Of a DNA stretch of 56,461 nucleotides, positions 9,161 to 52,817 are shown one piece after another. Numbering within the stretch: position 1 is the first letter of the stretch; each line of letters starts with the position of its first letter. The stretch covers positions 3,588-60,048 of the forward strand of contig CAZLZK010000001.1 in NCBI GenBank assembly GCA_964564005.1. Direction: 5' to 3'. The notes beneath the pieces were generated by a model. That model saw only the letters and a list, made by a program, of their open reading frames with translations, searched no databases and had not been told where the DNA came from. Origin of the DNA: an uncultured Gammaproteobacteria bacterium (lineage in GTDB: Bacteria > Patescibacteriota > Microgenomatia > UBA8517 > UBA10165). The position numbers and the translations under genes are program-made.

Positions 9161-10831
9161 CTAGAGAATTTCAATAATTCGAAAGGCTGTCCTCACATCA
9201 GGAAATTTTATCTCATCAATCAACTTGAAATTTTTTGGATCATTCGAGATTTCTGGGGGAACTTTAATAGGGTCAACTACAAAAAGCTTGCCGGCCATTC
9301 CACGGTCTGCTGACCAGTTAATATCGCGGAAGGTTATATTATCTAGTTTCGAAACTAACCCTACGTCTCCATATTGATTTAGTATATACACACTCTTTGC
9401 TGTCTTTTGATATTTTGCCGGATCATATTTTTGGTAAAACAAAAAGAAAATATAGGGTTGGGCATAATCTTGTTTGACGACAATCTCCTTATACTCTCTT
9501 TGTAATGGTGTAAGCTTTTCAACTATTTGTTTATATCCATATTGCCAAAATGGTGCATTTTGTTTAGGCGCATGCACCCAATATTGGTCGAGATAATAGG
9601 TGTAATTGGACAAATAGAGGATAGAGAATAGAGAGTAGATGGGAAAGGCAAAACGCCCAAGGCGCAATCGCTTCTCCCACAAGAGGCTTGCGCCGAGAGC
9701 CAAAATTATCGTGATGGGGATAACCATATTTAAGCTCCTTACGGCGTGGACAGAATCCCTGGAGAGCGCAGCTGGCAATGGAGAGGATAATAAAAGAAGC
9801 CACAAAAAGATAGTGCTTTCTCTCCTCCTTATTTGTGCGAGCGCTACCAGTCCTGAAATTAAAAATATAAGATCGAGAACTAAAATTACACCTGCATTTG
9901 GAACTCCTTGTCTGGGATTACTCCAATCGCCTTCGAAAAACAAAAACCGGCTGGAATAATGATTAAACCAACGACTTAAAACCCCTCGGGTGAAATTAAG
10001 ACGCTCCGAATGAAAAAGGATATACTGCCAGGAGTCAATCCCAACGTTATCCGGCCGCAGTATTTCCTGTACCGTTTCGGGGGAGCGTTCATATGAGAAG
10101 ATGCTGTAAACTTCAAGCCTGCCGGTTTTCCCTTGAAGGAGGCTTGTCAGAACCGGCATGCTAATCAAAATACCCAAGATAACACTATTAGTAATAATGC
10201 TGCGCGGGATTTTAGAAAAGCTTCGAAAGAGTGCAAACACAATTCCCAAAACAACTATGGCACTTGAAAGTTTTGCTCCCTGATAAGTCCACAGTGTCAA
10301 CGCAAAGAATACAGCTGAAAAGAGTAGTCGCTTTGGTGTCCCCGAAACCGCCATAAGGAAAAAATAAATCCCGGCAAGAGTTAGGGTTAAGGCAATATTG
10401 GCTTCCCATGCGCCTCGAGAAAATTGTAAATGCCACGGAGAAATTGCAAGGAAAAAGCCTCCCAAAAGTGCAACTCTCTCTTTTTGAAAAAGTTTTAAAG
10501 TTATTAGATAAAATAGCCAAACGGCAATAATCCCTGCCACGGCAGCGGGAAGGCGGACAGCCCACTCATTAAGGCCTAGGACCGCAACAAACGGAACGTC
10601 TAGATAAACATAGAGTCCGGGTTTCCAGTCCCCAAAAGACTTAAAAACAACCGGCAAGAATTCCCCGTGTTCATCCTTTCCTGTTTTAAGAATCGAGTAT
10701 GCGTTATAACCCAATGCCGCCTCGTCGTTCGTCAGATGAGGGGGGTTATTTGAAAGTCCCCAAAGACGCAAGACAGCTCCTAAGATCAAAATAAGCACTA
10801 ACCATTTATTAATTTTAAGTGTCTCAATCAT
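9161..10831 (-). CDS. GT-C fold membrane glycosyltransferase, PMT_2/ArnT-like (family A, paralog 2)
   Basis: 556 aa. TNDEAALGYNAYSILKTGKDEHG, AVRLPAA, ISPWHLQFSRGAWEAN, C-terminal QPYIFFLFYQKYDPAKYQ. Confidence 0.8.
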   Translation of the reverse strand: MIETLKINKWLVLILILGAVLRLWGLSNNPPHLTNDEAALGYNAYSILKTGKDEHGEFLPVVFKSFGDWKPGLYVYLDVPFVAVLGLNEWAVRLPAAVAGIIAVWLFYLITLKLFQKERVALLGGFFLAISPWHLQFSRGAWEANIALTLTLAGIYFFLMAVSGTPKRLLFSAVFFALTLWTYQGAKLSSAIVVLGIVFALFRSFSKIPRSIITNSVILGILISMPVLTSLLQGKTGRLEVYSIFSYERSPETVQEILRPDNVGIDSWQYILFHSERLNFTRGVLSRWFNHYSSRFLFFEGDWSNPRQGVPNAGVILVLDLIFLISGLVALAQIRRRESTIFLWLLLLSSPLPAALSRDSVHAVRSLNMVIPITIILALGASLLWEKRLRLGRFAFPIYSLFSILYLSNYTYYLDQYWVHAPKQNAPFWQYGYKQIVEKLTPLQREYKEIVVKQDYAQPYIFFLFYQKYDPAKYQKTAKSVYILNQYGDVGLVSKLDNITFRDINWSADRGMAGKLFVVDPIKVPPEISNDPKNFKLIDEIKFPDVRTAFRIIEIL

Positions 10832-12540
10832 ATCTGTTCTAGAATATCGAAGGCCGCCTTACCGTCAAGAAAGTCAATTGTTTTTAGTTTACGCCACCCT
10901 GGGGGATAATTACCGGGGCTTGTGACAAGAAGTGCCCTCCCGTCAATTTCTATTTCTTGTCCACTTTCCAACTTCCAATTTCCATCTTCTACCCTAGGTA
11001 TTCCCCAATCATTAACAAAATAAAATTTGTCGAACCGGTCAACCCAATACCAATTTGTTTGAAAGAAGCGAATTAAGTTGGGATCATTTTGATATTTCTC
11101 TGGATCCCAACGCCAGTAAAACAAGAAAAATTCATGCGGCTCTCCGTACTTTTTGGTAACAACAATCTGGTCGTCCTTATCATAATTTTGTTTGACATAT
11201 TGAACAACTTCCTTATATCCGTATTGCCAAGACCATGAATAGTTTTTTTTGTATTCGTCAAAGTATTTCATAAGATAACCCCCAACTGACCATCCAAGTA
11301 AAAACAAATAGATGGTTACGAGGATATATTTGATATTTGCTATTTGATTCGAAGACAAGCTATGTTTATATTTGCTATTTTTAACCCGGTCCCACGCTGC
11401 CACCAGTCCCACGCTCGTAAGAACCATGGGTATGGGTAATATTATAATTGAGCGAAGAACATGTGGAGCTTCCCGAGTTAAACTTGATGCAACTGGAGCG
11501 AGAATAATCCAGCCGAGAATAATCCACGAAGTTCGACTTCTCTTTTTCGAAAGGTAAATAAACCCTGCCAAGATAAATGGAGCATTTATCGCATAAAGCA
11601 ATCCGTGTCCAGGAATACTAAAGTGGAACTGACTACCACCGCCAAGGAATAAAAACTCTGGAGAGAAATGAGAAAGCCAGTTTGCAGCAAACTTTGGCAC
11701 AAAATAAGTAACCTTATTGTGTGCTAGACGCGCTAAAACCGCAGGGAGCCTGGAGGCACCACGCGCTTGGTTTATCTCGTGTATTGCTCCTTCGTCCAAA
11801 ATCGCTACCCAGACGTAGCGAGCTTGGCCCTGAGGATTTGCGAGTTGCCAGAACATGGGCAGGAAGAAAAAAGTAATAAGTAATAAGGAAGAAGTAAAAA
11901 GTCTTCTACTGGTGTTCCACAGAGAAAAAAGTTCCTTTCTGTAAAGAACGGCAAATAGTACAAGAAGAAGTGGAACAAAAATACGCGCAGAGTTGTAAGT
12001 CCAAACGGCTAGGCCAAGCAATGTTGCGGAAACTGGCAGGAATTTTACTTTCTCGATGCCAAGCAAGAAAAAATGTACTCCGGAGACAATCAGCATCAGA
12101 GCAAAATTTGCCTCAAAAGCCGGCCGGGAAAGAAAAGAGCTCCACGGCTCAACTGCTACCAACAGGGCGGCAATGAGCCCCACTCTTCTACCAAAAAGTT
12201 TTTTAGTAAGTAGAAATGTAAAAAGAACTGTAGCTACTCCTGCAAGTACAGAAGGTAGCCGTACCGCAAAAGAAGTCAAGCCAAAGACCGCTTCCGATAG
12301 GGCTGTCGCATATATATAAACCGGAAGTTTATAGTCTCCATATGCCCTAAAGATAGTTGGGAAAGATACTCCCCACTCGTCCTTGCCGGTTTTTAAAATT
12401 GAGTAGGCGTTCCACCCGTGGCTAACTTCATCCCAGTTCAGAGCTGGTGGAATAGTAGTCAGATTAATAATCCTCAACAAAAATGCAACTACCAAAATTA
12501 CGGTTAAGACTACTGCGGTTAGCAACTGACTTTTAGTCAT
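10828..12540 (-). CDS. GT-C fold membrane glycosyltransferase, PMT_2/ArnT-like (family A, paralog 3)
   Basis: 570 aa. NWDEVSHGWNAYSILKTGKDEWG, AVRLPSV, VEPWSSFLSRPAFEAN, C-terminal EPHEFFLFYWRWDPEKYQ. Confidence 0.8.
   Translation of the reverse strand: MTKSQLLTAVVLTVILVVAFLLRIINLTTIPPALNWDEVSHGWNAYSILKTGKDEWGVSFPTIFRAYGDYKLPVYIYATALSEAVFGLTSFAVRLPSVLAGVATVLFTFLLTKKLFGRRVGLIAALLVAVEPWSSFLSRPAFEANFALMLIVSGVHFFLLGIEKVKFLPVSATLLGLAVWTYNSARIFVPLLLVLFAVLYRKELFSLWNTSRRLFTSSLLLITFFFLPMFWQLANPQGQARYVWVAILDEGAIHEINQARGASRLPAVLARLAHNKVTYFVPKFAANWLSHFSPEFLFLGGGSQFHFSIPGHGLLYAINAPFILAGFIYLSKKRSRTSWIILGWIILAPVASSLTREAPHVLRSIIILPIPMVLTSVGLVAAWDRVKNSKYKHSLSSNQIANIKYILVTIYLFLLGWSVGGYLMKYFDEYKKNYSWSWQYGYKEVVQYVKQNYDKDDQIVVTKKYGEPHEFFLFYWRWDPEKYQNDPNLIRFFQTNWYWVDRFDKFYFVNDWGIPRVEDGNWKLESGQEIEIDGRALLVTSPGNYPPGWRKLKTIDFLDGKAAFDILEQI
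11348..11368 (-). repeat. Single inverted copy of the 21-bp repeat family
   Basis: The plus strand reads TTCGAAGACAAGCTATGTTTA. Its reverse complement TAAACATAGCTTGTCTTCGAA matches unit TAAACAGAGCTTGTCTTCGAT at 52547 in 19 of 21 positions. Encodes KHSLSSN inside 10828..12540. Confidence 0.7.
11871..11898. repeat. Heptanucleotide tandem tract AAGTAAT x2 plus 2 degenerate units
   Basis: AAGTAAT AAGTAAT AAGGAAG AAGTAAA. Shares a 16-mer AGTAATAAGTAATAAG with the 7961 tract, but sits at a non-homologous position in paralog 10828..12540 (SSLLLITFFF). Confidence 0.8.
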
Positions 12541-19973: not shown

Positions 19974-21162
19974 GGCGTTTGTTAATAAAAACCCTCCATA
20001 ATATCCAAATAGAAGCTGTTGTCATAGCAGTGTGCATAAGACTTTGTATTAAAACTGATGAAGGGCTTATTAATTCCATTGGCGCCGGTAGAAAAAGCAG
20101 AGCAGGTTCTACCGGGCCTAAAATTCCCCAGGTAAGAAACTTGTCTTGAAACAAGGCAATGGTAGCTACCCAACCTACAAGAAAAATGGCTGCAGGAAAA
20201 TATAGTTTATGCCTTACGATACCAACAATTAAAAAAGGCAAAGCCCACATCGTCCATTGCGGATGGAAGTGTGAACCTGCCAAAAATACTAAAGGTATGG
20301 CAAGAAAATATGGAAAAATATGTCTTCCGCCTTGTTTTTCACTTAAAAAGAATAAGAATACGATTATCCCGGGAATTATAAGAAGTCTTTCGTTAAACCC
20401 AATCGGCAACGAAATTTCAAAAATTCTCTGCGATAAGTTCGAAACAAGAGCATCCTCATAAAATTCAGGGGTTCTCAAGTAGGGAATAATAGTAATAAGA
20501 TACGTGGAAAGACCAATCGCTAAAAATTTTATTCTGGTAAACCAAGTCTTGCCTAAAAATAGAACCATAAAAGGCAGTAAGAAAAGTGGGTAGGATTTAA
20601 GAGCAGCTGCTAAACCTAAGATAAAGACACTCAAGTAGGGTTGACGAGAAACAAGAACTAAAGAAACTACCGTCAAAAATGCAGGAATACCGTCAAACTG
20701 TCCCATCATTGCAACTATATAAATACTTATTGGATTGAAAAACCAAATTGTCAGAGCTATTATTTTCTCTCTTGGGTTATCCAATAAGCGTACAAGAAAA
20801 AAACCGGTTGCTGTGTGAACAAGTATTAGTGGGAGTTTTATCGAAAAGAGATATTGAAATATATGGGGTACAGCGACAGCATCATTACCCATGGAAAGCC
20901 ACTCAACAAACCCGCTACCTGCCAGAATCTTAACCGGTAAAAAAAGTGTGCCGAAAAGAAAATATGCCAAGGGCGGATATACAAAAGGCCCCAAAAGGAC
21001 CCTATCAGGATTTGCCGCCAAAAACTCATAAATATTGAAAACCCCATCTTTCAAAAACTGGGATAGGTAGAAAATAGTTTTTATATCCGGATGGAAAAAG
21101 AACGGAGCCAGAAAAATATAGAGAAACGTACCGGCCAAAAGAGTCTTTCTCATACTATTCAT
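19966..21162 (-). CDS. Polytopic membrane protein, DUF2029/GT87-like GT-C candidate
   Basis: 398 aa, about 10 TM. Pattern KLPLILVHTATGFFL ... GQFDGIPAFL ... LAAALKSYPLFLLPF resembles the PimE/DUF2029 layout. Confidence 0.5.
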   Translation of the reverse strand: MNSMRKTLLAGTFLYIFLAPFFFHPDIKTIFYLSQFLKDGVFNIYEFLAANPDRVLLGPFVYPPLAYFLFGTLFLPVKILAGSGFVEWLSMGNDAVAVPHIFQYLFSIKLPLILVHTATGFFLVRLLDNPREKIIALTIWFFNPISIYIVAMMGQFDGIPAFLTVVSLVLVSRQPYLSVFILGLAAALKSYPLFLLPFMVLFLGKTWFTRIKFLAIGLSTYLITIIPYLRTPEFYEDALVSNLSQRIFEISLPIGFNERLLIIPGIIVFLFFLSEKQGGRHIFPYFLAIPLVFLAGSHFHPQWTMWALPFLIVGIVRHKLYFPAAIFLVGWVATIALFQDKFLTWGILGPVEPALLFLPAPMELISPSSVLIQSLMHTAMTTASIWILWRVFINKRHE

Positions 21163-22547
21163 TTGCTACTTCTTAAATATTGTACAAACAAAAACAGGAA
21201 TGATCCAATCGCTAAGATAATAAGTGTGTTTATAACAACAGTCGTCGAGAGGACATCAACCAAGAAGGGAAACCTTGGGGCCCACCAATTATGGTAGAGG
21301 TTAAGAAAATGAAACAGTGAGACCCCGAGAAAAACTCCTAAAATTTTTTTATCTTTCAGGCCAGCTAGAAGTATAAATGGCAAAGCCTGCTCAAGATGTC
21401 TCTCATGTATTCGCGTTAAGAAAAGAAACGCTACAAAAGCTACAAGTCCGGCAGCAAATAAAACTTTCTCTGGCTGCGCTTTGTTTTTAATCATCGTAAA
21501 TAAGACCACGGCGAGAACAACACCAAAAAGTGTGTACCCCCAAAAGACATAAGGCAATCCCAGAAGGAATATCTTGGAATCGGAAATCTTATCAAGACCA
21601 GCTACCAGTGCCCAGAAATTAAATGCGTGATCTGTGACGAAATCAGAGACGGCACCCAATTGAATTTTGTTCCAGTAAGTTAAAAAAGGAAACAAAAATA
21701 AATTGCCAACTTTGTAAGCGTAGCTTGACTGCGTATAAGCGTAGCTTGACTGCGTATAAAAAGGCACGAACGTTAGCCAAAAGATCAAGACTGCAGCGGA
21801 CAGCGCCTTAACTGCCTTGAGCAAGTCATGCCTTGCCAAGAAAGCGGCTACGAAGATTGGAACAAAGACTATAGAGGTTTGCTTAGTTAAGAGTCCCAAC
21901 GCCAGAAAGATGGTCGCGAGGATAAATTTCTTGGAGTACAGCAATAGATAAAAGGCCAAAAGAACAAAAAATAATGGAATCGCCTCTATCTGCCCCCAAT
22001 AAGCACTATTATAAAAAAAAGCAGGGTTGAAAAGAATTAAGGAGCTTCCTATAAGCGGAGCTTGACTGCGTATAAGCGGCCATCTTGATTTCCGATTGTC
22101 CGCCAATTTTTGGGCAAACATAAAAACAACCCACGCGATACCCACATCGGCCAATACACCCGGGGTTTTAAGAAAAGCAGGAAGGGTATCTTGATCTTCC
22201 AAAAAGAATATAAAGTTCGAGGGGAAGATGCTGACTGCGGAATTTACACTCCACGAAATCTGATGCACCCAATTATAAAGCCAATAGAAGATAGTAAAGA
22301 AAAAAATTGGTATAGGAGGATAATTTGGAGTTAGAGCACCGTATCGAAAGAAAAACTCGCGCTCGTAAATACCCGTAAAGCCTAAGGTCAAGCTATCTTT
22401 AGCCCAAGCGATGTGGTTGTTAACATCACCACTGTAAATCTGAACACTTAAGAATAATCTAAGAAGAAGACCGGAGAGAAGGAGGGTAAGAAGCTTGTGC
22501 CTATTTACGACTTGTGCCAAAGTTTTTGCCATTTTTGTCCTGACCAA
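21159..22547 (-). CDS. Polytopic membrane protein, Gpi18/DUF2029-like GT-C candidate
   Basis: 462 aa. SGDVNNHIAWAKD after TM1 parallels IGDVLVHREWGEKF in 37130..38485, plus GLLTKQTSIVFVPIF. Contains two in-frame copies of the 21-bp repeat family (YTQSSYAYTQSSYAY and IRSQAPLIGSS). Confidence 0.55.
   Translation of the reverse strand: MVRTKMAKTLAQVVNRHKLLTLLLSGLLLRLFLSVQIYSGDVNNHIAWAKDSLTLGFTGIYEREFFFRYGALTPNYPPIPIFFFTIFYWLYNWVHQISWSVNSAVSIFPSNFIFFLEDQDTLPAFLKTPGVLADVGIAWVVFMFAQKLADNRKSRWPLIRSQAPLIGSSLILFNPAFFYNSAYWGQIEAIPLFFVLLAFYLLLYSKKFILATIFLALGLLTKQTSIVFVPIFVAAFLARHDLLKAVKALSAAVLIFWLTFVPFYTQSSYAYTQSSYAYKVGNLFLFPFLTYWNKIQLGAVSDFVTDHAFNFWALVAGLDKISDSKIFLLGLPYVFWGYTLFGVVLAVVLFTMIKNKAQPEKVLFAAGLVAFVAFLFLTRIHERHLEQALPFILLAGLKDKKILGVFLGVSLFHFLNLYHNWWAPRFPFLVDVLSTTVVINTLIILAIGSFLFLFVQYLRSSK
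21715..21759 (+). repeat. 21-bp repeat family, 2 identical tandem units plus a partial one (TAAGCGTAGCTTGACTGCGTA)
   Basis: Exact tandem duplication at 21715-21735 and 21736-21756. Encodes YTQSSYAYTQSSYAY in the minus-strand gene. Confidence 0.95.
22038..22097 (+). repeat. 21-bp repeat family, one intact unit (TAAGCGGAGCTTGACTGCGTA, 22052-22072) flanked by degenerate units
   Basis: Shares a 20-mer AGCTTGACTGCGTATAAGCG with the 21715 locus. Read in a different frame (IRSQAPLIGSS) in the same gene. Confidence 0.85.
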
Positions 22548-23338
22548 ATTATGAAATTAATAAGATGATGCTTTAAAAGCCCATGATAAAGTTTGCTTGA
22601 CGGAATAAGCCTTTTCCATTGTTCTTTATCAGGCATAACACTTTTCCCGCTCACTCCATGGTGATGCACAATCTCGGCTTCTGGCAAATAATAGACCTTC
22701 AACCCTGCTTTTTTTACGCGTCTGCAATAGTCCAAATCTTCAAAGTACATAAAATACCTCTCGCTCAGCATACCTGCTGTTTGCAAGGCTCGGGGTGTGA
22801 TTAGAAATGCTGCGCCAACTACAGCATCCACAACAACAGGGGTAGAAGTTCGGGGGACATAACTGGAATAAGTTTTTTTACCGAACCAAAACTCCTGGAC
22901 AGCTCTCCATATTGTTGGAGAATGGAAAACTGATTTTTGAGTCGTCCCGTCTTCCAAGATAAGTTTCGTCCCAACAATTCCAGCGTCGTCCGTACTCTCG
23001 GCAAAGCTCAAGAGTTTTTGAATTGCTCCTTTCTGGACTTTAGTATCCGGATTTAGAAGCAAAATATACTTCCCTCTCACTTTCTTTATTCCTTGATTAA
23101 CCGCCTTTGCAAAGCCGAGGTTGTTCGCATTTTGAATTATCTTAAGTTTTTCAGTTCTTCCGTTTTTCAGTTCTTCAACCGATCCATCAATCGAAGCATT
23201 GTCTATCACAACTACCTCACAACTCGGATTTTGAAAATCGTTCGTCGTCTCTTCAATTGATTGAACACACTCTTTTAGGAGTTCTCCTGTATTGTAATTA
23301 ACAATAATTATTGAAAGTTGCGTTTTCATTGCGGCCAT
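22505..23338 (-). CDS. GT2 glycosyltransferase (WbbL/rhamnosyltransferase-like subgroup)
   Basis: LSIIIVNYNTGELLKECVQSI ... VVVIDNASIDGS ... NLGFAKAVNQG ... YFMYFEDLDYCRR. Confidence 0.9.
   Translation of the reverse strand: MAAMKTQLSIIIVNYNTGELLKECVQSIEETTNDFQNPSCEVVVIDNASIDGSVEELKNGRTEKLKIIQNANNLGFAKAVNQGIKKVRGKYILLLNPDTKVQKGAIQKLLSFAESTDDAGIVGTKLILEDGTTQKSVFHSPTIWRAVQEFWFGKKTYSSYVPRTSTPVVVDAVVGAAFLITPRALQTAGMLSERYFMYFEDLDYCRRVKKAGLKVYYLPEAEIVHHHGVSGKSVMPDKEQWKRLIPSSKLYHGLLKHHLINFIIWSGQKWQKLWHKS
23146..23177. repeat. 16-bp direct tandem duplication (GTTTTTCAGTTCTTCC / GTTTTTCAGTTCTTCA)
   Basis: 15 of 16 positions identical and adjacent. Lies inside the GT2 gene 22505..23338, with the two copies read in different frames (VEELKN / GRTEKLK). 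Confidence 0.9.
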
Positions 23339-25738: not shown

Positions 25739-26403
25739 TTCTTTTTAACCTTGACCGCCTGCAACATCCCTAGCAAAAATTTATGGTTGTCTGTAATCTC
25801 AAATCCACCGCTGCGCATTTTATCTAAAATCTGGTCCGCTGCGAATCTATGAAGATGTGTGCCTCTCCATATTTTACCTCGCCAAAGTAGCCAGAGGGGC
25901 CAAACGATAAATTTAAAAAGAAGGTTCTCGGTCGGCACCAGGGTAATTACCTTACCTCTATCCTTGAGAACTCTATGCATCTCTAGAATTACCTTTTGTG
26001 GGTCTTCTATATGCTCCAAAGCCTCGAGGCAAACAATTAGATCGAATGTCTTGTTTTCGAATGGTAAAGCGTGAGCATCAGCAATCCTAAAAGACAGTTT
26101 CTTGCTTCGCGCAAAACGGCGTTTTGCATAGGATATCGACCGCGGAAGAACATCAATACCGACAAGCCTTTCGGCCTTTGATCTACCAAGAATCACTTTG
26201 CTAAAAGTTCCATCAGCACATCCTATATCCAAAATCATTCCTCCCCTTGGCTCGACCAACTTTCCAACCTCTTGAAAACGCCTTGTATGCCAAAACCTCT
26301 GGAGCAAATTCTCTTTTATTGATCTAGCGTACCAGTCGGGGGGAACATTTCTGTGAAGCTCCGCAGCTCTAGTCTGCAATCTTGATGCGCCTTGCAATTC
26401 CAT
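25735..26403 (-). CDS. Class I SAM-dependent methyltransferase
   Basis: ILDIGCADGTFSK (motif I GxGxG-like), LIVCLEALEHIEDP, LKDRGKVI. The ORF track extends to 26448. The Met at 26403 (MELQG) reduces overlap with the upstream gene, which ends at 26369. Confidence 0.85.
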   Translation of the reverse strand: MELQGASRLQTRAAELHRNVPPDWYARSIKENLLQRFWHTRRFQEVGKLVEPRGGMILDIGCADGTFSKVILGRSKAERLVGIDVLPRSISYAKRRFARSKKLSFRIADAHALPFENKTFDLIVCLEALEHIEDPQKVILEMHRVLKDRGKVITLVPTENLLFKFIVWPLWLLWRGKIWRGTHLHRFAADQILDKMRSGGFEITDNHKFLLGMLQAVKVKKK

Positions 26404-28879
26404 ATTTATCAGCAACAAATAGTGCCACCAAAATAAACAACGTGGCACTTGATATCACCCGGCCTATTTTAAAGGATTCTGGAGAATAAAGAAACCGGAC
26501 CTCGTGAGTACCCCGGGGAACGATAACTGCGCGAAAGGTATAATTTGCACGATATATCCTAGTCTCGCGCCCATCAACGTAGGCCCGGAATCCCGGATAC
26601 CAGCTGTCTGAAACAAAGAGTAAACCCTCCCTGTCGGTTTTCACCTCGATGATACTCCCCTGCTCTTTGTATTTTTGATAAAAAACTTCGGTACAAGAGA
26701 CTTCGTTACAAAGAACTTCGTTTCTCATGTCTGCCGCCGTTCTCTCTATCTGCGGATCTTGTTCCAAAATTATTTTTGAAGAGAACGGATAATTCGGGTC
26801 TAGGAGCTTAGTTAATATCTCCTCGGGGTCACCCTCCGTCTCCCAATCATAAACCAAAAATGCCCTTGGAAGAACGGTTTTACTTTCAAGGATTGCCACA
26901 CTCTTGTCCTCAAAGGCCAACTTAAATCTCTCCTCTCTAAATCTTTCGGGAATATTACCAGAAGGGTCGGGTTCACCTCTCTGGTTCAGTTTATAAGCTA
27001 AATAATATTTGGTGTTCACAAGATCAAGAAGATGCGAGGTGTCATTGTCAACAATGCCGTATCGACCTGTAGGAGTTGCATCTATCCCTTGACTATTTAA
27101 CGCGGCTAAAAAATGAGAGATCCGGACTGGATGAATAGTTTCATAGCCTTCCAAAGAGTCTAATTTATAAGGTGTCCGTAAATTTACAGGAATTACCTTA
27201 TTCCCCGTCACTCTAAAAGGCTGTTCTTGGGAGATCAAGAAGTCCAGGATCGGAGTCCTTGGAAAAACCAGCCTTCTCTCAGAAAAAGGTGTAAATTTCC
27301 AACCAAATCTGAACAATTCAAACAAAAGTAAAAATGACAGAGATACGAGACCAAGTTTTTTAAACCTATCCCACCTTGCAATAAACCAAAGAATAAGGGT
27401 TGATGTTACAAATATTGCAATCGGCAGTACCAAATTTCGTAGGCCAACTGAGTATTTTGGGAAATTCTGGCTAGACGCAATCAAATAAACTGTCACAAAA
27501 AGAAAACCCCCCAAGATGAAGCTGGGAAAAATCAGTGCATACTTAAACTGAGGTTTACGACGAGAGAGGAGATAATCGAACCCAAACCCCGAAAGCAAGG
27601 AGGCTGCGAAATTAAACAGCACTGTCGCTCTATGGGCCGATGCTGCCTGCATTCCAAAGACATCGCTCCCCCACAAGAAGATTGAGAGAGGCGTAGGGAA
27701 AGACAGGACGAGCGAGAAGATTAATAGTGTAAACAAAAAAAGGACTGCTCTCTTTGCTTTTAAAAACCCTAGACCCAAAGTCGCCAGAACAAAAACTACA
27801 ACCCCGACATACCCAGTATTTGAGGTATAATCTTGAGGGCCCCAGTAGTTGCCGGTTGCATGGTTACCAAAATAATCAGGAGCAAGAAAAGTAATTATCT
27901 TACTCCACGGCAAAAAGGTCCATGTAAAAGAATTTGGTTCAAAACTTCTCTGTGAAAGTCTCCACAACTCTAGTGTTGGCAAGATTTGGAAGGCGGCAAG
28001 GGAAAGCGCAAGAAGCAAAAAGAAAGCCAAAAGAACCGTCTTTTTTACAAACTTGAAACCCCTCTCTTCATAAAACCGGATTCCCCATAAGATAACTATT
28101 GCCAAGGCTGTATATAAGCTTATTTGTGGATAACCTGAAAGGAGTTGAAAGACCAAGGTCAGCGATAAAAGAACACCATCTCGCGTCTCATGTTTCTTCA
28201 AATATCTATCCTCAAAGAGGACGGCGAGGGGAATAAAGCTTGATGCTAGGGTGTGTCCATTCCACTGAGAGAAGATAAGGTTAAAGCCAGAAAAAGCAAA
28301 AGCTATCCCCCCTAAAACTGATCCAAACTTAGACACATTCCAGTGTCTTAAGAGAAGAAACGAAAATAGGGCGGCTAGTAAATGCTGAAAAACTATTTGC
28401 AGACTCCAGGCGGAGAGAGTCTCAAAAAGAAAATATAAAAAATTCGTTGGAGAAAAAGGTGCTGCCTGTAAATTAGCAAAAAGTGGTGTGCCAGTCAGAA
28501 TATATGGGTTCCATAAAGGAAACTCACCAAGCTTAATAAGATCTACGCCCAGCATCTGCTCGGGGTAAATTAGGGAGACAGCATCGCTGGTTATTGGATT
28601 TTTAACCGGAACTCCTGTTACGTATCCCCACTTGTAATCAAGCCAGGGGTGGTATGCTCCGACAACCATATCCGAAGGCAAGGGGATTTTACCCTGCAGA
28701 AAAACTGGATAAAAGAAAGTCGCAACTGCGACGACTATAAGCAGAGCTTGACTTCGTATAAGCAGAGCTTGACTTCGTATAAGCAGCAAGGGCCAGCTTT
28801 TACTCAATAATCTTGAGAATTTCTTTTTCAAATCTTTCTTGGGAGAAGACTTTTGCTTTCTCTTGCGCTTTTTGGGCAA
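26369..28879 (-). CDS. Large polytopic membrane protein, YfhO-like GT-C candidate
   Basis: 836 aa in the ORF track. Many TM helices followed by a C-terminal external domain and a final TM, as in YfhO-type lipid-linked-sugar transferases. The track start (TTG 28879) overlaps the upstream GT4 by 80 nt. A TTG at 28807 (overlapping that gene's stop) is a more conventional start. Carries the 21-bp repeat near the N-terminus. Confidence 0.6.
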   Translation of the reverse strand: MPKKRKRKQKSSPKKDLKKKFSRLLSKSWPLLLIRSQALLIRSQALLIVVAVATFFYPVFLQGKIPLPSDMVVGAYHPWLDYKWGYVTGVPVKNPITSDAVSLIYPEQMLGVDLIKLGEFPLWNPYILTGTPLFANLQAAPFSPTNFLYFLFETLSAWSLQIVFQHLLAALFSFLLLRHWNVSKFGSVLGGIAFAFSGFNLIFSQWNGHTLASSFIPLAVLFEDRYLKKHETRDGVLLSLTLVFQLLSGYPQISLYTALAIVILWGIRFYEERGFKFVKKTVLLAFFLLLALSLAAFQILPTLELWRLSQRSFEPNSFTWTFLPWSKIITFLAPDYFGNHATGNYWGPQDYTSNTGYVGVVVFVLATLGLGFLKAKRAVLFLFTLLIFSLVLSFPTPLSIFLWGSDVFGMQAASAHRATVLFNFAASLLSGFGFDYLLSRRKPQFKYALIFPSFILGGFLFVTVYLIASSQNFPKYSVGLRNLVLPIAIFVTSTLILWFIARWDRFKKLGLVSLSFLLLFELFRFGWKFTPFSERRLVFPRTPILDFLISQEQPFRVTGNKVIPVNLRTPYKLDSLEGYETIHPVRISHFLAALNSQGIDATPTGRYGIVDNDTSHLLDLVNTKYYLAYKLNQRGEPDPSGNIPERFREERFKLAFEDKSVAILESKTVLPRAFLVYDWETEGDPEEILTKLLDPNYPFSSKIILEQDPQIERTAADMRNEVLCNEVSCTEVFYQKYKEQGSIIEVKTDREGLLFVSDSWYPGFRAYVDGRETRIYRANYTFRAVIVPRGTHEVRFLYSPESFKIGRVISSATLFILVALFVADKYGIARRIKIAD
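26685..26729. repeat. 15-bp tandem repeat x3 (ACTTCGKTACAARGA, third unit diverged)
   Basis: Encodes NEVLCNEVSCTEVFY in the C-terminal external domain of the YfhO-like protein. Confidence 0.8.
28738..28786 (+). repeat. 21-bp repeat family, 2 identical tandem units plus a partial one (TAAGCAGAGCTTGACTTCGTA)
   Basis: Units at 28738-28758 and 28759-28779, then TAAGCAG. Encodes LLIRSQALLIRSQALLI at the N-terminus of the YfhO-like protein. Confidence 0.95.
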
Positions 28880-46336: not shown

Positions 46337-47328
46337 ATTGTTTTAAGATATCCTTCTAGCTTCTCTCTGATTCTTCTTGTCGCCTCCTCAAACTCTCCAT
46401 AGACCCTGAAGCCTGCTGCTACTTTATGTCCGCCGCCCCCAAGTTCTTTGGCTATATCAGCAACGTTAACATTTGTGCGTGAACGAAGACTTCCGTGAAC
46501 TGTGCCTTTTTCCTCCTCCACAAGGAACATCCCAAAATCCGTCCCTTCTATGTTGGCAAGAAAAGTTTCAGATGTGTTTTGATTAACTACTGGACCCCCT
46601 AACGTTTCAAGTTGAGAAAAAGGGATAGCTGCCCAGACAAAACAGTAGCCACCGACTTTTTCTATCTTCATGCTCTCCAAGACCTTAGCCCAGAACTTTG
46701 CAGTCGCGAAAGATATCCTCTGGTTAAGATTAAATGCTATGGCCGGAAAGGAGGCGCCTTTTTGGAGAAGACCGCTGGCCACCGTGAAGGTGTCTGGGCT
46801 CACCCCAGAAGCAAATCGAAAGGTTCCGGTGTCTCCGGCGATGCCAGTCATGAGACAAGTAGCAACTTCGGAGGTCACCTCAACCCCCCAATCAGAGAAA
46901 AGATTGTATAAAACTTCGCCCAGAGAGCCAATTTTATCGTCGACCAAATTGATACCACCGTATTTCTCATTAAGGTAATGATGATCGATATTAACTATAA
47001 AGAGGCTCGGGGGCGGTCGAAAGACCTCTTTGGTCAACATTCCAAGTGACGCAGAATCCACAGCCAAGAGGAGGTCGAATCCATCTAGCTTCTTGCTGTT
47101 TAGGTCTTCTCGCTGTATCTTTGCAAAACCCGGAAGAAATTCAAGGTTTTTAGGTAATCCATCGGTTGAAACAATCTCCACGTCCTTCTCTCGGCCGGTC
47201 AAAATTTGGTACAGGGCGAGGTTAGAGCCAACGCTATCTGGGTCTGGACTCCGGTGAACCACCAGAAGAATTTTGTGGGAGGCATCAATTTTCTCAATAA
47301 TTTGCTTCGACTCTTGGTAGTATGTCAT
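46333..47328 (-). CDS. DHH/DHHA1-family phosphoesterase (NrnA-like oligoribonuclease/pAp phosphatase type)
   Basis: 331 aa. HRSPDPDSVGS (DxD), NIDHHYLN (DHH), GGGHKVAAGF (DHHA1 GGGH). Confidence 0.85.
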   Translation of the reverse strand: MTYYQESKQIIEKIDASHKILLVVHRSPDPDSVGSNLALYQILTGREKDVEIVSTDGLPKNLEFLPGFAKIQREDLNSKKLDGFDLLLAVDSASLGMLTKEVFRPPPSLFIVNIDHHYLNEKYGGINLVDDKIGSLGEVLYNLFSDWGVEVTSEVATCLMTGIAGDTGTFRFASGVSPDTFTVASGLLQKGASFPAIAFNLNQRISFATAKFWAKVLESMKIEKVGGYCFVWAAIPFSQLETLGGPVVNQNTSETFLANIEGTDFGMFLVEEEKGTVHGSLRSRTNVNVADIAKELGGGGHKVAAGFRVYGEFEEATRRIREKLEGYLKTI

Positions 47329-48929
47329 TGTCCTTCGGGATTGTGAACAAGCTTAAAAACTCTCACGCCTTTCTGTTCCCATTCTTTTTCTATCTTCGCC
47401 CAGCCGAAGTTGGCAATTTCTGCTTTTTCGTGATTTATGGGCTTACATGGCTCTGGATTACCCGGAGAGGTAGTGTCTTCGCAAACAACGAAAAGCTGGT
47501 CTGTTATCGTCTCTTTTGAGCGTTGTGCGTCGATCTCCCGAACCGGAGCCTTCCAGAGCTCGAAGAAGTAAAGATATCCTTCCTCGTAATTTCTCTTAGC
47601 AATAAGCCCAAAGTTAAACGGTTTATCGCCCGCTTCATTCATTATTCTCCTATCAATTTCCTGAACGCGTTGCAGTTGTCGCTGCGGCGGATCTTTTAAT
47701 GGATTTTGCTGGAGGTTAATCCAGATTAACAGTATCCCTATCACTATCACCAACCACTTTCTATCTGTCCATAACTCCTGTAAAATCGCGCCCACGAGAA
47801 GAAACGGGGCTGCGAACATAAACTCAAAATAGTGGCTATAAATAGCTTGTTTATAAAGCCCAAGACCAAGAAGCCCTACTACGATCCACAATGAAGTAAG
47901 TCTTAGGGCGGCAAGTTGAACCTTCTTTTGATTGTTGTGCCACTTACGACCTAACCATAAAGCGCCGATAACAAGAACTATTGCAACAAGAGCACTCCAT
48001 TCTTTTTCTCTACCTACGAGAAGATTGGTTACAACATCGTTTTGCCAAAGAGGCCAGAGGTCGGGAATGGCGTTCCACGGCCTCGCCGAAACCGTTGTTT
48101 GCCGCTCGGTGAAAAACTTAACCATCGCTCCCCAGTTTCGGAAAGCATGTTTTGCGTCAAAGAAGACCAAGGGAGACATCGAAAAAGCGAAAAGCGAAAA
48201 AGCGAAAAGCGAAAAGATAAAAAACTTTTTCCGTATAAGCAAAGCTTGACTGCGTGTAAGCAAAGCTTGACTGCGTATTGCGTATTGCGTATTACGCAGA
48301 GTGAGTAGCCAAAAAATGCCGATCGTTGGAAGCAGTAAAAGGCCAAGGTAATGCGACTGCAGAACTGCGGCAAAAGATACACCAAGCACCAACAGCCATT
48401 TCCACTCCCTCTTTTGCCAAACCCGCCAAATGGCAAAAATAGACAAAAGGGCAAAGAAAGGCATTATGTTAGGATTCCAAGAATGCCTTGCGTGAAGAAT
48501 TACAACTGGGGAGATAGCAAATAAAAGGCTTGCGAAAAAGGCTGCAACTTTCCCAAACCACTCACGCGCAGCAAACCAGGTGAGAAAAACCGTTGCTACA
48601 CTTAAGAGCGCCACAAAGGTGGCCGGGCCCACAGGAGAAAAACGCCAAAGAGCCAAGAATGGGGCAATAAGATAATAGTATAAGGGCCCCAAATACATAT
48701 CCCCAATTGAAGTACGGGGCCCAACAAACATAAGATCAAAATCTGTTAAGAAACGCCGAACAACTCTCACATCCCGACCTTCATCTCCCAAAAACGTCAG
48801 ATATCCATCAATCTTCCAAAGGCGCAGTGCGGCAGCTAACAGCAAAACAGCTAACAGCAAAACAGCCTCTCTTTTATTTTCCAGAATCCGTTCTCTGATA
48901 CTTGTGAATTTTACCTTGTAACCTTTCAT
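47325..48929 (-). CDS. Polytopic membrane protein, GT-C-like (family C, paralog 3)
   Basis: 534 aa. FLGDEGRDVRVVRRF ... FVGPRTSIGDMYLGPLYYYLIAP. Contains four different in-frame tandem repeats. Confidence 0.6.
   Translation of the reverse strand: MKGYKVKFTSIRERILENKREAVLLLAVLLLAAALRLWKIDGYLTFLGDEGRDVRVVRRFLTDFDLMFVGPRTSIGDMYLGPLYYYLIAPFLALWRFSPVGPATFVALLSVATVFLTWFAAREWFGKVAAFFASLLFAISPVVILHARHSWNPNIMPFFALLSIFAIWRVWQKREWKWLLVLGVSFAAVLQSHYLGLLLLPTIGIFWLLTLRNTQYAIRSQALLTRSQALLIRKKFFIFSLFAFSLFAFSMSPLVFFDAKHAFRNWGAMVKFFTERQTTVSARPWNAIPDLWPLWQNDVVTNLLVGREKEWSALVAIVLVIGALWLGRKWHNNQKKVQLAALRLTSLWIVVGLLGLGLYKQAIYSHYFEFMFAAPFLLVGAILQELWTDRKWLVIVIGILLIWINLQQNPLKDPPQRQLQRVQEIDRRIMNEAGDKPFNFGLIAKRNYEEGYLYFFELWKAPVREIDAQRSKETITDQLFVVCEDTTSPGNPEPCKPINHEKAEIANFGWAKIEKEWEQKGVRVFKLVHNPEGQ
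48181..48216. repeat. 15-bp tandem repeat (GAAAAAGCGAAAAGC) x2.4
   Basis: Encodes FSLFAFSLFAFS in 47325..48929. Confidence 0.9.
48236..48277 (+). repeat. 21-bp repeat family, 2 tandem units (TAAGCAAAGCTTGACTGCGTG/TA)
   Basis: Units at 48236-48256 and 48257-48277 with 20 of 21 positions identical. Encodes RSQALLTRSQALLI in 47325..48929. Confidence 0.95.
48271..48298. repeat. Heptanucleotide tandem tract YTGCGTA x3 followed by TTACGCA
   Basis: CTGCGTA TTGCGTA TTGCGTA TTACGCA, directly abutting the 21-bp units. The last two units form the dyad TGCGTA-t-TACGCA. Confidence 0.85.
48833..48866. repeat. 15-bp tandem repeat (CAGCTAACAGCAAAA) x2.3
   Basis: Exact duplication at 48833-48847 and 48848-48862. 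Encodes AVLLLAVLLLA in TM1 of 47325..48929. Confidence 0.9.
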
Positions 48930-49708: not shown

Positions 49709-49804
49709 ACCACAGCAAGCTTTCTATGTGCTATTATAAGCAGAGCTTGCAACGAACTGTGTTCGTTATAAGCGTAGCTTGTTTGCCTTCGGCAACATGA
49801 GCAC
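49709..49804. promoter_or_regulatory. Divergent intergenic control region for the 49-kb minus-strand array and the plus-strand PIG-V-like gene
   Basis: The only non-coding gap longer than 75 bp in the window. It lies between divergent start codons and should hold both promoters. On the minus strand it has TGCTTATAAT (extended -10-like) and TTGCCG-18 nt-TTATAA. It is occupied by the extended repeat copies. Confidence 0.5.
49737..49796 (+). repeat. Extended intergenic version of the repeat family: two heads TA-TAAGC-NN-AGCTTG, each followed by a hairpin
   Basis: TATAAGCAGAGCTTG is an exact 15-mer match to the 28738 locus, followed by AACGAAC-tgt-GTTCGTT. TATAAGCGTAGCTTG is an exact 15-mer match to the 21715 locus, followed by TTGCC-ttc-GGCAA. 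Confidence 0.85.
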
Positions 49805-50968
49805 ATGGAAAAAGCCAAACCGTTTTTATTGCTCGCAATTGCTTCTCTTGCCACAACTTTTCTTCTTTGGCTACCGTTCATATTAAGAATTCCCTCCCTC
49901 TGGGGAATCAATTTGCCTCAAAACGGTCTTGCAACGGTTGTTGCAAACTTTGACGGGCCCCATTATATAGTTGTTGCCAAAACTCTCTATGACCCCCAAG
50001 CAATTGCGGAAAATTTCTCTTTCCCATTACAGCCGATTTATTATTCTGCCCATTATCCGCTTTTCCCGCTTCTTATAAAGCTGGTTGCCGAAATCTTCCC
50101 ATTCGTGGGATACCCTTACGCAATGATATTAGTGACAGTTCTAACAAGTGTTCTCGCGCTCTGGATGTTTTATAGACTTCTTGAGGAGTTCGGGCTTAAA
50201 AGACATGCCTTATGGCTTACACTACTTTTTACAATCCTTCCCGGTCGTTGGCTTATCGTTCGTTCAATAGGCTCACCGGAACCATTATTTCTACTAACCA
50301 TCATGGCTTCAATTTTTTACTTCCGAAGGGAGAAGTGGGTTCTTGCTGGGATTTTTGGGGCGCTTGCGCAAGCAACAAAACCGCCAGGCATCCTCCTCTT
50401 TTTCGCCTACCTTATCGCGCTTATCGCACCAGCATGGCCAAAATTAGCACATACGGACGCTGGTAAATGGCTGCGGGGTCTTCCGTGGAGAGCCTATCCA
50501 ATATTTCTTATTCCACTCACATTAATCTTAATCTATGTCTTTTATGGAATTCGCTATGGCAATTTCTTGGCTTATTTCAACTCCGGAGATAATATCCACC
50601 TTATCTTCCCACCATTTAGGATTTTTAACCCTAATCTTACTTGGGTCGGAACTTTCTGGCTTGAAGAAATTATCTGGATCTATCTTTTTGGCGGCCTAGG
50701 GCTTCTTTATTTAATTAAACAAAAGAGGACGCTTCTAGCATCTTTTGTCGGAGTATTTTTCTTCTTCATTCTCTTTGTTTCGCATCGAGATATCGCGCGC
50801 TATAGTCTCCCAATTATACCCTTTCTCTTTATCGGGTTTTCAAATCTCTTAGTATCAAAGGAGTTTAAGTGGGTAATGATTCTTTTAGCAATTCCAATCT
50901 ATCTCTATTCAATCGCCTTCATCGCGGGGAATGTTACGCCGATTGGGGACTGGGGACCACTGCTTTAG
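49805..50968 (+). CDS. Polytopic membrane protein, PIG-V/Mannosyl_trans2-like GT-C candidate
   Basis: 387 aa. VANFDGPHYIVVAKTLY after TM1, paralogous to 4463..5674. About 9-10 TM. Confidence 0.6.
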   Translation: MEKAKPFLLLAIASLATTFLLWLPFILRIPSLWGINLPQNGLATVVANFDGPHYIVVAKTLYDPQAIAENFSFPLQPIYYSAHYPLFPLLIKLVAEIFPFVGYPYAMILVTVLTSVLALWMFYRLLEEFGLKRHALWLTLLFTILPGRWLIVRSIGSPEPLFLLTIMASIFYFRREKWVLAGIFGALAQATKPPGILLFFAYLIALIAPAWPKLAHTDAGKWLRGLPWRAYPIFLIPLTLILIYVFYGIRYGNFLAYFNSGDNIHLIFPPFRIFNPNLTWVGTFWLEEIIWIYLFGGLGLLYLIKQKRTLLASFVGVFFFFILFVSHRDIARYSLPIIPFLFIGFSNLLVSKEFKWVMILLAIPIYLYSIAFIAGNVTPIGDWGPLL

Positions 50969-52433: not shown

Positions 52434-52817
52434 ATGAATATTAAAACAGGGGTTGATATTGTGTACCTGCCGAGGTTTCGCACCAGCTTAAAGCGTGGAG
52501 GGGCTGCTTTTTTACAAAGAGTTTATCTTCCGCAGGAGCTAAAGGATAAACAGAGCTTGTCTTCGATTAAGCAAAGCTTGTCTTCGATTAAAAGAACAAC
52601 GCGGCTTGCCGGAATTTTTACTTCCAAAGAAGCAGTAATTAAGGCTCTAGACTTACCCGCTGGCTCGTGGCATGACATTCAAATAACCCACAACTCGAAA
52701 GGCGCGCCCCGCGTCCACCTTCTCACCTCTCAGCTCTCACATCCCACCTCCTCCTCGCTAAGCATCTCCCACGACGGCAACTACGTCATTGCTCATTTTG
52801 TAGTTATACTAAAATAA
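52434..52817 (+). CDS. acpS: Holo-[acyl-carrier-protein] synthase (4'-phosphopantetheinyl transferase, AcpS type)
   Basis: 127 aa. GVDIVYLPRF, AGIFTSKEAVIKAL, ITHNSKGAP, SISHDGNYVIA, which are the AcpS signature blocks. Carries an in-frame 21-bp repeat insertion (KQSLSSIKQSLSSIK). Confidence 0.85.
   Translation: MNIKTGVDIVYLPRFRTSLKRGGAAFLQRVYLPQELKDKQSLSSIKQSLSSIKRTTRLAGIFTSKEAVIKALDLPAGSWHDIQITHNSKGAPRVHLLTSQLSHPTSSSLSISHDGNYVIAHFVVILK
52547..52591 (+). repeat. 21-bp repeat family, 2 tandem units plus a partial one (TAAACAGAGCTTGTCTTCGAT / TAAGCAAAGCTTGTCTTCGAT)
   Basis: Units at 52547-52567 and 52568-52588. Lies in the plus-strand acpS gene and is read as KQSLSSIKQSLSSIK. Confidence 0.95.

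Follow-up and report, generated by a model that had tools for sequence, protein, structure and literature searches.

A very small dispersed and apparently mobile 21-bp DNA repeat family in and between genes of Microgenomates bacteria

The window analysed here is a 56,461-bp stretch of contig CAZLZK010000001.1 (assembly GCA_964564005.1), deposited under the name of an uncultured Gammaproteobacteria bacterium and placed by GTDB in the Microgenomatia (Patescibacteriota); among named taxa, Candidatus Blackburnbacteria stand closest to it. Long open reading frames (ORFs) take up about 96% of the window, the greater part of which forms a single large glycosylation locus on one strand that encodes GT-C membrane glycosyltransferases (PMT_2/GT39, GT87, YfhO) along with GT2, GT4 and flippase genes. 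Between positions 1 and 50968 the glycosylation genes run nearly unbroken on the same strand for ~50 kb and include at least 14 GT-C-type membrane glycosyltransferase paralogues (PMT_2/GT39, GT87, YfhO, PIG-V-like and PTPS-related), with synteny kept in two related loci, L033 and L040. No tRNA and no transposase, integrase or reverse transcriptase gene was found in the window. Dispersed among these genes, and mostly inside them, is a family of 21-bp repeats that is the subject of this work.

The window was scanned with the consensus TAARCNNAGCTTGWCTKCGWW, written TAARC-NN-AGCTTG-WCTKCG-WW, allowing up to two mismatches and taking dinucleotide-preserving shuffles as the null. The scan returned 11 matches at seven loci against 0.02 expected, so that the family proposed in a preliminary description of this DNA stands far above what composition would give by chance. 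A position weight matrix built from the units recovered the same 11 (25–33 bits), with no other window site above 10 bits and the best of 50 shuffles at 19 bits. The unit can be written T1A2A3R4C5N6N7A8G9Y10T11T12G13W14C15T16K17C18G19W20W21, a 13-bp core followed by an 8-bp linker, and comes in two subtypes: A-type units carry GACTKCGTA and T-type units GTCTTCGAW (GTCTTCGAT/A). Tandem Repeats Finder (TRF) delineates 21-bp arrays of 2.1–2.4 copies at four loci; lone units are those at 22052, 49769 and, inverted, 11348. The usual arrangement as first described, two tandem units plus a partial third, holds at four of the seven loci.

Two independent insertions, read in two frames, lie in a gene for a GT87-like GT-C membrane glycosyltransferase (21159..22547, minus strand; Pfam GT87). 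The first (21715..21759, plus strand) is an A-type pair followed by TAA, with TAAGCGTAGCTTGACTGCGTA present twice in identical form (TRF 2.1 copies, 100% matches). The second is a single A-type unit with NN=GG (22052-22072 within 22050..22079, plus strand), flanked on both sides by the 9-bp direct repeat TATAAGCGG. Two identical A-type units with NN=AG and a 9-bp partial copy (28736..28786, plus strand; TRF 2.4 copies) lie antisense in a YfhO-like ORF (26369..28879), whose likely start is a TTG near 28800, within the part for the N-terminal tail or the first helix. The array at 48232..48293 (plus strand) consists of two A-type units (48236-48277, NN=AA) that run directly into TGCGTAT x3, for which TRF gives the rows 48232-48278 (2.2 copies) and 48272-48293; it is antisense in a variable loop of a GT39/PMT_2 gene (47325..48929). 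Within acpS (52434..52817, Pfam ACPS domain), two T-type units, TAAACAGAGCTTGTCTTCGAT and TAAGCAAAGCTTGTCTTCGAT, followed by TAAA (52547..52592, plus strand; TRF 2.2 copies) lie in sense orientation, as does the single T-type unit TAAACATAGCTTGTCTTCGAA (11348..11368, minus strand) within a run of CAAATAT/G heptamers in another GT39/PMT_2 gene (10828..12540).

The remaining locus is intergenic, 5′ of gene 49805..50968 (plus strand). What had been listed at 49737 as a full copy is only the 13-bp core TAAGCAGAGCTTG (49737-49749), followed by an unrelated 19-nt hairpin; the full unit here is the divergent TAAGCGTAGCTTGTTTGCCTT at 49769-49789, with its linker lengthened to the hairpin TTGCC-TTCG-GCAA. 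One core stands 32 bp from the other, with the 19-nt hairpin between them. Apart from 21 and 32 bp, distances of 24, 45 and 62 bp were found too.

One and the same DNA unit is read in three combinations of frame and strand in the window, as YTQSSYA, RSQA(P/L)LI and K(Q/H)SLSS(I/N). Antisense to the GT87-like gene, the 21715 copy is translated YTQSSYA twice (YTQSSYAYTQSSYAY) and the 22052 copy, in another frame, LIRSQAP; the translations originally given for this gene (YTQSSYAYTQSSYAY and IRSQAPLIGSS) are exact. The 28738 copy yields LIRSQAL twice, the 48236 copy RSQALLT/I twice (...YAIRSQALLTRSQALLI...), the acpS copy KQSLSSI twice and the 11348 copy KHSLSSN. Because the unit is used in different frames and on both strands, the conserved entity is the DNA and, as was first argued, not a peptide. 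The accompanying statement that the antisense strand is open in three frames and the sense strand in one is correct for A-type units; T-type units have two open sense frames, and their ...GAT form has a stop in one antisense frame. Every in-gene copy is a multiple of 21 bp in a stop-free frame and, since 21 bp equal seven codons, a change in copy number keeps the frame.

A repeat arising at the protein level, either from a selected heptad peptide or from independent local slippage, would agree with a period of seven codons and with hosts that are mostly membrane glycosyltransferases with low-complexity loops. Such an ancestral or convergent origin is refuted, and we leave it practically no probability: one unit gives three peptides, the segments are missing in homologues, the same 21-mer makes up non-coding arrays elsewhere, and 11 matches are found where 0.02 are expected.

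Relatives carry empty sites at four loci (22052, 21715, 28738 and 48236). In all 19 GT87 homologues (48–67% identity), LIRSQAP at 22052 faces an exact 7-residue gap and YTQSSYAYTQSSYA at 21715 an exact 14-residue gap. The same two gaps, of 7 and 14 residues, are present in the GT87-like orthologue of L033, a 21-kb syntenic locus of a relative with 61–80% protein identity. The window protein has 457 aa against typically 425–440 aa among 176 homologues. Both insertions are reproduced in two independent Logan assemblies (L034 and L035) and are therefore no assembly artefacts. At 28738 the L033 orthologue reads PFLGIIFAVLVFFYP and the window PLL[LIRSQALLIRSQAL]LIVVAVATFFYP, leaving 14 residues without a counterpart in the N-terminus of the L033 YfhO protein. 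At 48236, RSQALLTRSQALLI occurs in the window protein alone and is absent from 13 homologues (alignment A2), among them the closest relative, L040 (P0122, GCA_030647365.1), which is 75–77% identical. The acpS segment KQSLSSIKQSLSSI falls in gaps relative to the solved AcpS structures 5xuk and 2jbz, and at 11348 the window has the longest form of a length-variable loop, 6–7 residues beyond the longest homologues (alignment A4). The proposal that these are insertions rather than ancestral sequence is thus borne out: we checked whether orthologues all carry the segments as protein motifs, and the 19 GT87 homologues, L033, L040 and 12 others, and the AcpS structures all lack them. An AlphaFold2 model of the GT87-like protein (mean pLDDT 84) places the 14-residue insert as coil between two helices with pLDDT <50 (residues 263-274), which would be a tolerated position, and the 7-residue insert at a helix start after a loop.

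Pattern scans located the unit, at least 85% identical, in ~8 GTDB species representatives and six metagenome contigs; it is common to several ultra-small groundwater bacteria. Carriers include a Levyibacteria metagenome-assembled genome (MAG; three contigs), a complete Daviesbacteria chromosome (one locus), UBA6130 and several MAGs that are titled "Gammaproteobacteria" yet encode Microgenomates-type loci. Host proteins are only ~50–65% identical across the carrier lineages. A further 430 kb of Microgenomates loci contained zero units and the viral contigs of IMG/VR gave 0 matches, which speaks against a viral origin. As a separate observation, records named "uncultured Gammaproteobacteria bacterium" from binchicken and SRP/ERP co-assemblies (L011-L013, L020, L021, L028, L029, L001, L037, L042, L043 and L046) carry Microgenomates-type glycosyltransferase loci together with the repeat family, and their organism names look unreliable.

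Beyond the window, units are mostly intergenic and form arrays of up to at least eight units, often at contig ends. In four independent assemblies the array sits at such an end (L002 1-87, L004 1109-1281, L007 1108-1220 and L034 1-34), L034 terminating within the 28738 array; the repeat therefore breaks short-read assemblies. The intergenic arrays are flanked, in both orientations, by unrelated housekeeping genes (those for FtsA, MreB, RarA, sugar-nucleotide enzymes and others), so a common neighbouring gene was discarded. Further in-gene single units are read as KQSLTSY (L001), DKQSLSSI (L042) and, antisense, YTKSSSA (L043); YKQSLTAY in L046, a putative in-gene copy, lies near the 5′ end of a 301-codon open frame. 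In L033, KRSLSSN and KQSLSLN are found at the N-terminus of a PMT protein and the TAA of the unit is the stop codon of the upstream gene. Junction copies that overlap an upstream stop codon are known from L033, L004 and L005.

No copy occupies an orthologous position in any two genomes, among relatives at 61–88% protein identity. Where L033 has its two units at a PMT/PMT gene junction, the corresponding junction in the window (~16008-16029) has none. Conversely, an 11-residue insert of L040 contains a core copy (NKQSLIF) at a place where the window protein is uninterrupted, a pair whose orthology is uncertain because the two proteins are only 39% identical. The L040 intergenic region orthologous to that of 49737 has no canonical unit, yet a promoter-like TGTGCTATTAT is common to both. 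These divergent intergenic regions (window 49709-49804, L040 9141-9247) keep both TGTGCTATTAT, which is extended -10-like, and CTTGAAAATCATACCACAG. The -10-like ATCATA, which the minus strand reads as TATGAT, is separated by a mere ~8 nt from the start codon on that strand, suggesting a leaderless transcript or a very short 5′ untranslated region.

This distribution bears on whether the unit might resemble a DNA uptake signal, spread by biased uptake and recombination with its in-gene copies confined to tolerated frames. These bacteria are thought to depend on competence machinery, and the A-type and T-type "dialects" across related lineages, as well as the mix of coding and intergenic copies in restricted reading frames, would suit such a signal. 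Uptake signal sequences and DNA uptake sequences, however, number about one per kb, arise by point substitution and are not tandem, whereas the copies described here are tandem 21-bp insertions that add sequence relative to orthologues, at a density far too low in most carriers (e.g., one strict match per 820 kb). We consider this reading very improbable.

The ends of the arrays are not alike. Among arrays not cut by a contig end (n=22), 21 lose the 21-bp periodicity no more than 2 nt beyond T1 on the left, while the partial units on the right are of 1, 3–7 or 13–17 nt. Detection of single units is biased to the T1 phase; arrays of at least two units (n=10) are free of this bias and all 10 obey the T1 start (binomial P far below 1e-8). 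TAA is immediately preceded by A in 17 of 23 cases (P ~1e-5). Reconstructed empty sites read ...G/TAA/AAAGG at 21715, ...GA/TAA/AAGA in acpS and ...TA/TAAGCGG at 22052, and (A/G)TAA stands at the junction in eight of the nine loci for which an empty site could be reconstructed. The exception, 48236, has the flanking match CGTAT, which shares only the T. At the reconstructed sites 3 to 9 bp of the flanks are identical; flanking repeats overall span 1–9 bp in genes and 13–17 bp in intergenic arrays. Units within one locus are identical or nearly so, which supports the local duplication suggested earlier. Two simple insertion models were tried at these junctions. An insert of 12 bp combined with a fixed 9-bp target-site duplication agrees with 22052 and 28738 and is excluded at 21715 and 52547, because the conserved PFYK and DKR contexts there leave only TAA(A); a saturated TATAAGC target was rejected as well, four free TATAAGC sites remaining in the window.

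Arrays that start in a fixed phase and end 3′ in a partial unit of variable length are what one expects of reiterative templated addition, in which a polymerase or reverse transcriptase would prime on a ...TAA 3′ end, copy a short TAA-ended template, realign in a telomerase-like or rolling-circle-like manner and stop at a variable point, with repair joining the downstream DNA. TAA at the junctions, mostly preceded by A, the identity of same-locus units, as from one synthesis event, and a period divisible into 18 nt plus a 3-nt TAA agree with it. Yet the window holds neither a reverse transcriptase nor a template RNA gene, and no known RNA family was recognised (Rfam gave nothing above the gathering threshold for the window and, for the arrays, nothing even at E ≤1). 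NN also varies by locus (GT, GG, AG, AA, AT), so there is not one fixed template, and it equals flanking sequence at 22052 and 28738; slippage from a founder of one unit plus a fraction would moreover preserve the ends too. As a full account, this process seems to us quite improbable.

The interior of the unit shows two short dyads, examined on 21 distinct canonical units. In the core, positions 2-5 (AARC) pair with 9-12 (GYTT) across the 3-nt spacer N6N7A8, so that the variable NN (GT, GG, AG, AA, AT and GA across the family) lies in the free spacer of a small inverted repeat. A second, 2-bp dyad in the linker joins W14C15 with G19W20. W14/W20 is A-T in eight units and T-A in 13, never A-A or T-T, and R4/Y10 shows a compensatory AAAC...GTTT in L004 and L033, and also in the second unit type of L045, where the spacer has 2 nt. 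Dyad cells are paired in 98.4% and the observed covariation score is attained by 0 of 500 shuffles, with the caveat that only two pairs vary and that the W14/W20 states coincide with the two subfamilies. As single-stranded DNA (ssDNA), canonical dimers fold no better than shuffles (z = 0.42 and 0.02), so if the dyads matter, recognition of duplex DNA is more plausible than a hairpin. A stable hairpin, a terminator and a REP-like structure were accordingly rejected, the longer hairpins also having no T-run after them. An alternative 6-bp stem (4-9 with 15-20), predicted for the GT variant, failed as NN and K do not covary. A promoter composed of TTGACT and TATAAG in adjacent units was dismissed too, the spacing being 3 or 24 bp and not 16–18.

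Some cores carry longer hairpin linkers, of 19 nt in the window at 49737 and in L037, and GCCC-TTCG-GGC in L042 and L043. A "long form", made up of the core, a 7–8-bp hairpin whose 5′ arm is the core itself, and CAAAAT(A/T)A, often closes an array (L005 870-905, L006 2741-2780, L040 16930-16968, L044 1615-1650) and in L040 is a 33-bp in-frame insert. Judged from these forms, there seems to be a core-plus-hairpin family of which the 21-bp unit is the shortest member. That the 21-bp form alone recurs in genes is as expected, since it amounts to seven codons without stops. Separately, a composite array in UBA6130 (L045 7095-7241, DIVO01000015.1) alternates two different 21-bp units, with A=TAAGCAAAGCTTGTCTGCGAA and B=TAAACAAGTTTGCGAAGCCAG arranged as B-A-B-B-A-B-B, the dyad of unit B being AAAC-AA-GTTT.

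Such anatomy raises the question of a host-functional cis element. AARC-N3-GYTT would then be the site of a conserved dimeric DNA-binding protein with a nucleoid, segregation or regulatory role, arrays would load several dimers, and the intragenic copies would be functional sites or tolerated spill-over. Two dyads with compensatory changes, NN placed exactly in the dyad spacer, conservation of the unit across lineages with proteins only 50–65% identical, spacings of 21 and 32 bp near two and three helical turns, and ssDNA folding that favours duplex recognition are all in line with it. However, copies are lacking at orthologous sites in relatives at 61–88% protein identity, intergenic arrays have unrelated housekeeping neighbours in both orientations, spacings of 24, 45 and 62 bp occur as well, and density varies by orders of magnitude among genomes. 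A fixed left end with a ragged right one also resembles a product of synthesis or insertion and not a selected operator. On these grounds we regard the cis element as unlikely, though better placed than the preceding alternatives.

We therefore favour, as the probable explanation, a very small dispersed and apparently mobile DNA repeat family specific to a subset of Microgenomates. At 21 bp the unit ranks with the smallest apparently mobile DNA elements seen so far. Mobility would follow from the between-species comparisons at 61–88% protein identity. Copies are added in whole 21-bp steps at sites holding TAA, are gained at different places in different lineages and are homogenised within a locus; the arrays would afterwards grow and shrink locally, and slippage or gene conversion would give the NN that both units of a locus usually share. 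Most insertions would hit genes because a coding density of ~96% leaves almost no other landing place. The copies seen in genes are all stop-free multiples of seven codons in loops or tails, presumably tolerant ones, and would have survived purifying selection. The encoded peptides would be passengers, the in-gene copies presumably having no function of their own. This agrees with the earlier suggestion that insertions are widespread and only ORF-preserving ones survive, which fits the data; with ~11 in-gene copies, however, the orientation bias is statistically indistinguishable from the effect of that filter alone.

A conserved, sequence-specific trans-acting factor, be it an enzyme or a nucleic-acid template, probably makes or maintains the copies, because the unit is near-identical across lineages at 50–65% protein identity and starts in a fixed phase, neither of which plain slippage yields. 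The factor might be a nuclease, a transposase or a polymerase that uses a template, or else host replication might copy existing arrays via TAA/TATAAG microhomology. Addition may be reiterative, primed on TAA and copying an existing array or another template; the diversity of NN contradicts a single fixed template and the fixed phase contradicts random-phase template switching. Dedicated sequence-specific insertion machinery in a subset of Microgenomates, such as an enzyme or RNA-templated polymerase that adds an 18+3-nt module on (A)TAA, is a tentative extension that we think doubtful.

Several observations weigh against a mobile repeat. The two Logan assemblies, presumed to be from the source samples, do not differ from the window. 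The window yielded neither a transposase or reverse transcriptase nor any other candidate trans factor, as would be expected if the element is non-autonomous. Junctions are not uniform: 22052 and 28738 have perfect 9-bp flanking repeats that resemble a target-site duplication, with NN identical to the flank, the junctions at 21715 and 52547 have TAA(A) only, and no single simple model fits every locus. Density is low in relatives, with one strict match in the complete 820-kb Daviesbacteria chromosome against seven loci in 56 kb here. A binding site with a host function would account just as well for the dyads and for conservation across lineages, and the W14/W20 covariation could be a single ancestral double change inherited by the two subfamilies.

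The preliminary description had likened the family to the Rickettsia palindromic elements (RPE), which Ogata and co-workers reportedly described in 2000 as ~100–150 bp long, palindromic and not tandem. The analogy holds for the outcome: a dispersed non-coding repeat in a compact, gene-dense genome, present between genes and as in-frame, stop-free inserts in tolerated surface segments of genes, and absent from orthologues. The unit itself is no RPE, given inserts of 21 or 42 bp, dyads of only 4 and 2 bp in place of a palindrome or stable hairpin, usually tandem copies with a TAA-phased left end, and residence in Patescibacteria. Closer in size are the small dispersed repeats (SDR) of heterocystous cyanobacteria, said to have been described by Elhai and colleagues in 2008 with lengths of 21–27 nt. 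In what citing papers tell of them, they are ~20 bp, tandem and possibly mobile. By those descriptions, the two share size class, dispersal, tandem copies, presence or absence among relatives and the lack of a known transposition enzyme. Our family has a 21-nt unit, seven loci in 56 kb and from one to at least eight copies per locus; empty sites are seen in L033 and L040 and none of the 430 kb of Microgenomates loci carries it. Phylum and sequence differ, in-frame residence in essential genes is prominent here, and homology to the cyanobacterial SDR is unlikely.

Mycobacterial interspersed repetitive units (MIRU), reportedly described by Supply and colleagues in 1997, are said to be 46–101 bp long, intergenic within operons and co-oriented with transcription. 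With these variable-number tandem repeats (VNTR) the family shares one tandem sequence at many loci, variable copy number and some copies at gene junctions over the upstream stop codon; it differs from MIRU in size and in its in-frame inserts inside genes. Repetitive extragenic palindromic (REP) elements and REPINs with their RAYT (Y1 HUH) transposases are 20–40-bp imperfect palindromes with a GTAG/CGTC head, extragenic and typically in inverted pairs, thought to depend on a single-copy trans-acting enzyme (PMC3116915; PMC3733652). Our repeat is likewise short, lineage-conserved, dispersed and clustered, with dyad symmetry; a GTAG-like tetranucleotide, however, exists only in the NN=GT variant, there is no comparable palindrome, most window copies are intragenic and in direct tandem, and no RAYT gene was found in the 56-kb window. 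Miniature inverted-repeat transposable elements do not match, as the unit has no terminal inverted repeats and its flanking repeats are not of fixed length. Nor does CRISPR, with repeats of 23–47 bp and unique spacers, match head-to-tail units with an invariant 8-nt linker and no match to viral contigs; contingency simple sequence repeats have units not divisible by 3, whereas 21 bp make seven codons.

In the literature searched, neither the core sequence in this sense nor such repeats in Patescibacteria turned up. The kind of element is already known, both as very small dispersed repeats and as in-frame selfish DNA, and the sequence family is a new variant of it. What this work adds to the preliminary description are the empty sites at four loci, the Microgenomates distribution, the two-dyad anatomy, the core-plus-linker architecture and the TAA-phased start.

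Patescibacteria, whose genomes are tiny and ~96% coding, are regarded as having little mobile DNA. For a repeat to reside in frame in housekeeping and cell-surface genes would mean that, even with hardly any room between genes, DNA of a selfish or semi-selfish kind can hold on, the same lesson that the Rickettsia elements hold for obligate intracellular bacteria. Fixed TAA phase, whole-unit steps and cross-lineage conservation point to a sequence-specific mechanism that could be traced by phylogenetic profiling. In practice, the arrays inflate differences in ORF and protein length among relatives and could be VNTR-like strain markers for uncultured lineages. Were dedicated machinery to exist, the units would rank with the smallest actively mobile DNA elements on record and would be a continuing source of 7-residue insertions and deletions in the surface-glycosylation enzymes of episymbiotic bacteria.

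The window is also rich in other short tandem repeats. It contains 12 heptanucleotide arrays of at least three copies, against none in the 21 kb of the syntenic L033, including 7490-7520, 7963-7995, 8636-8667, 9613-9639, 11326-11348, 11863-11902, 48183-48216 and 48272-48293. That at 7490-7520, located between two genes, is a perfect TCTTTGT x4.4; in the 48236 array the last unit runs on into TGCGTAT x3, and the 11348 unit is bordered by CAAATAT/G heptamers. We rejected the heptamer arrays in general as products of the same process, most of them encoding transmembrane-helix low complexity that is also present in homologues (e.g., FSLFAFSLF); only those abutting units, at 48272 and 11326, may be linked to it. 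Two further repeats have longer periods. A perfect 16-bp direct repeat, GTTTTTCAGTTCTTCC x1.9, lies at 23146-23176 inside the GT2 gene 22505..23338; relative to the L033 orthologue there is no 16-bp insertion or deletion, only a one-residue length difference in a variable segment, and the repeat may be a templated patch. At 26680-26722 a 15-bp array of 2.9 copies corresponds to an 8-residue insert (DMRNEVLC) in the YfhO-like C-terminal domain relative to L033, an in-frame tandem duplication unrelated to the 21-bp family.

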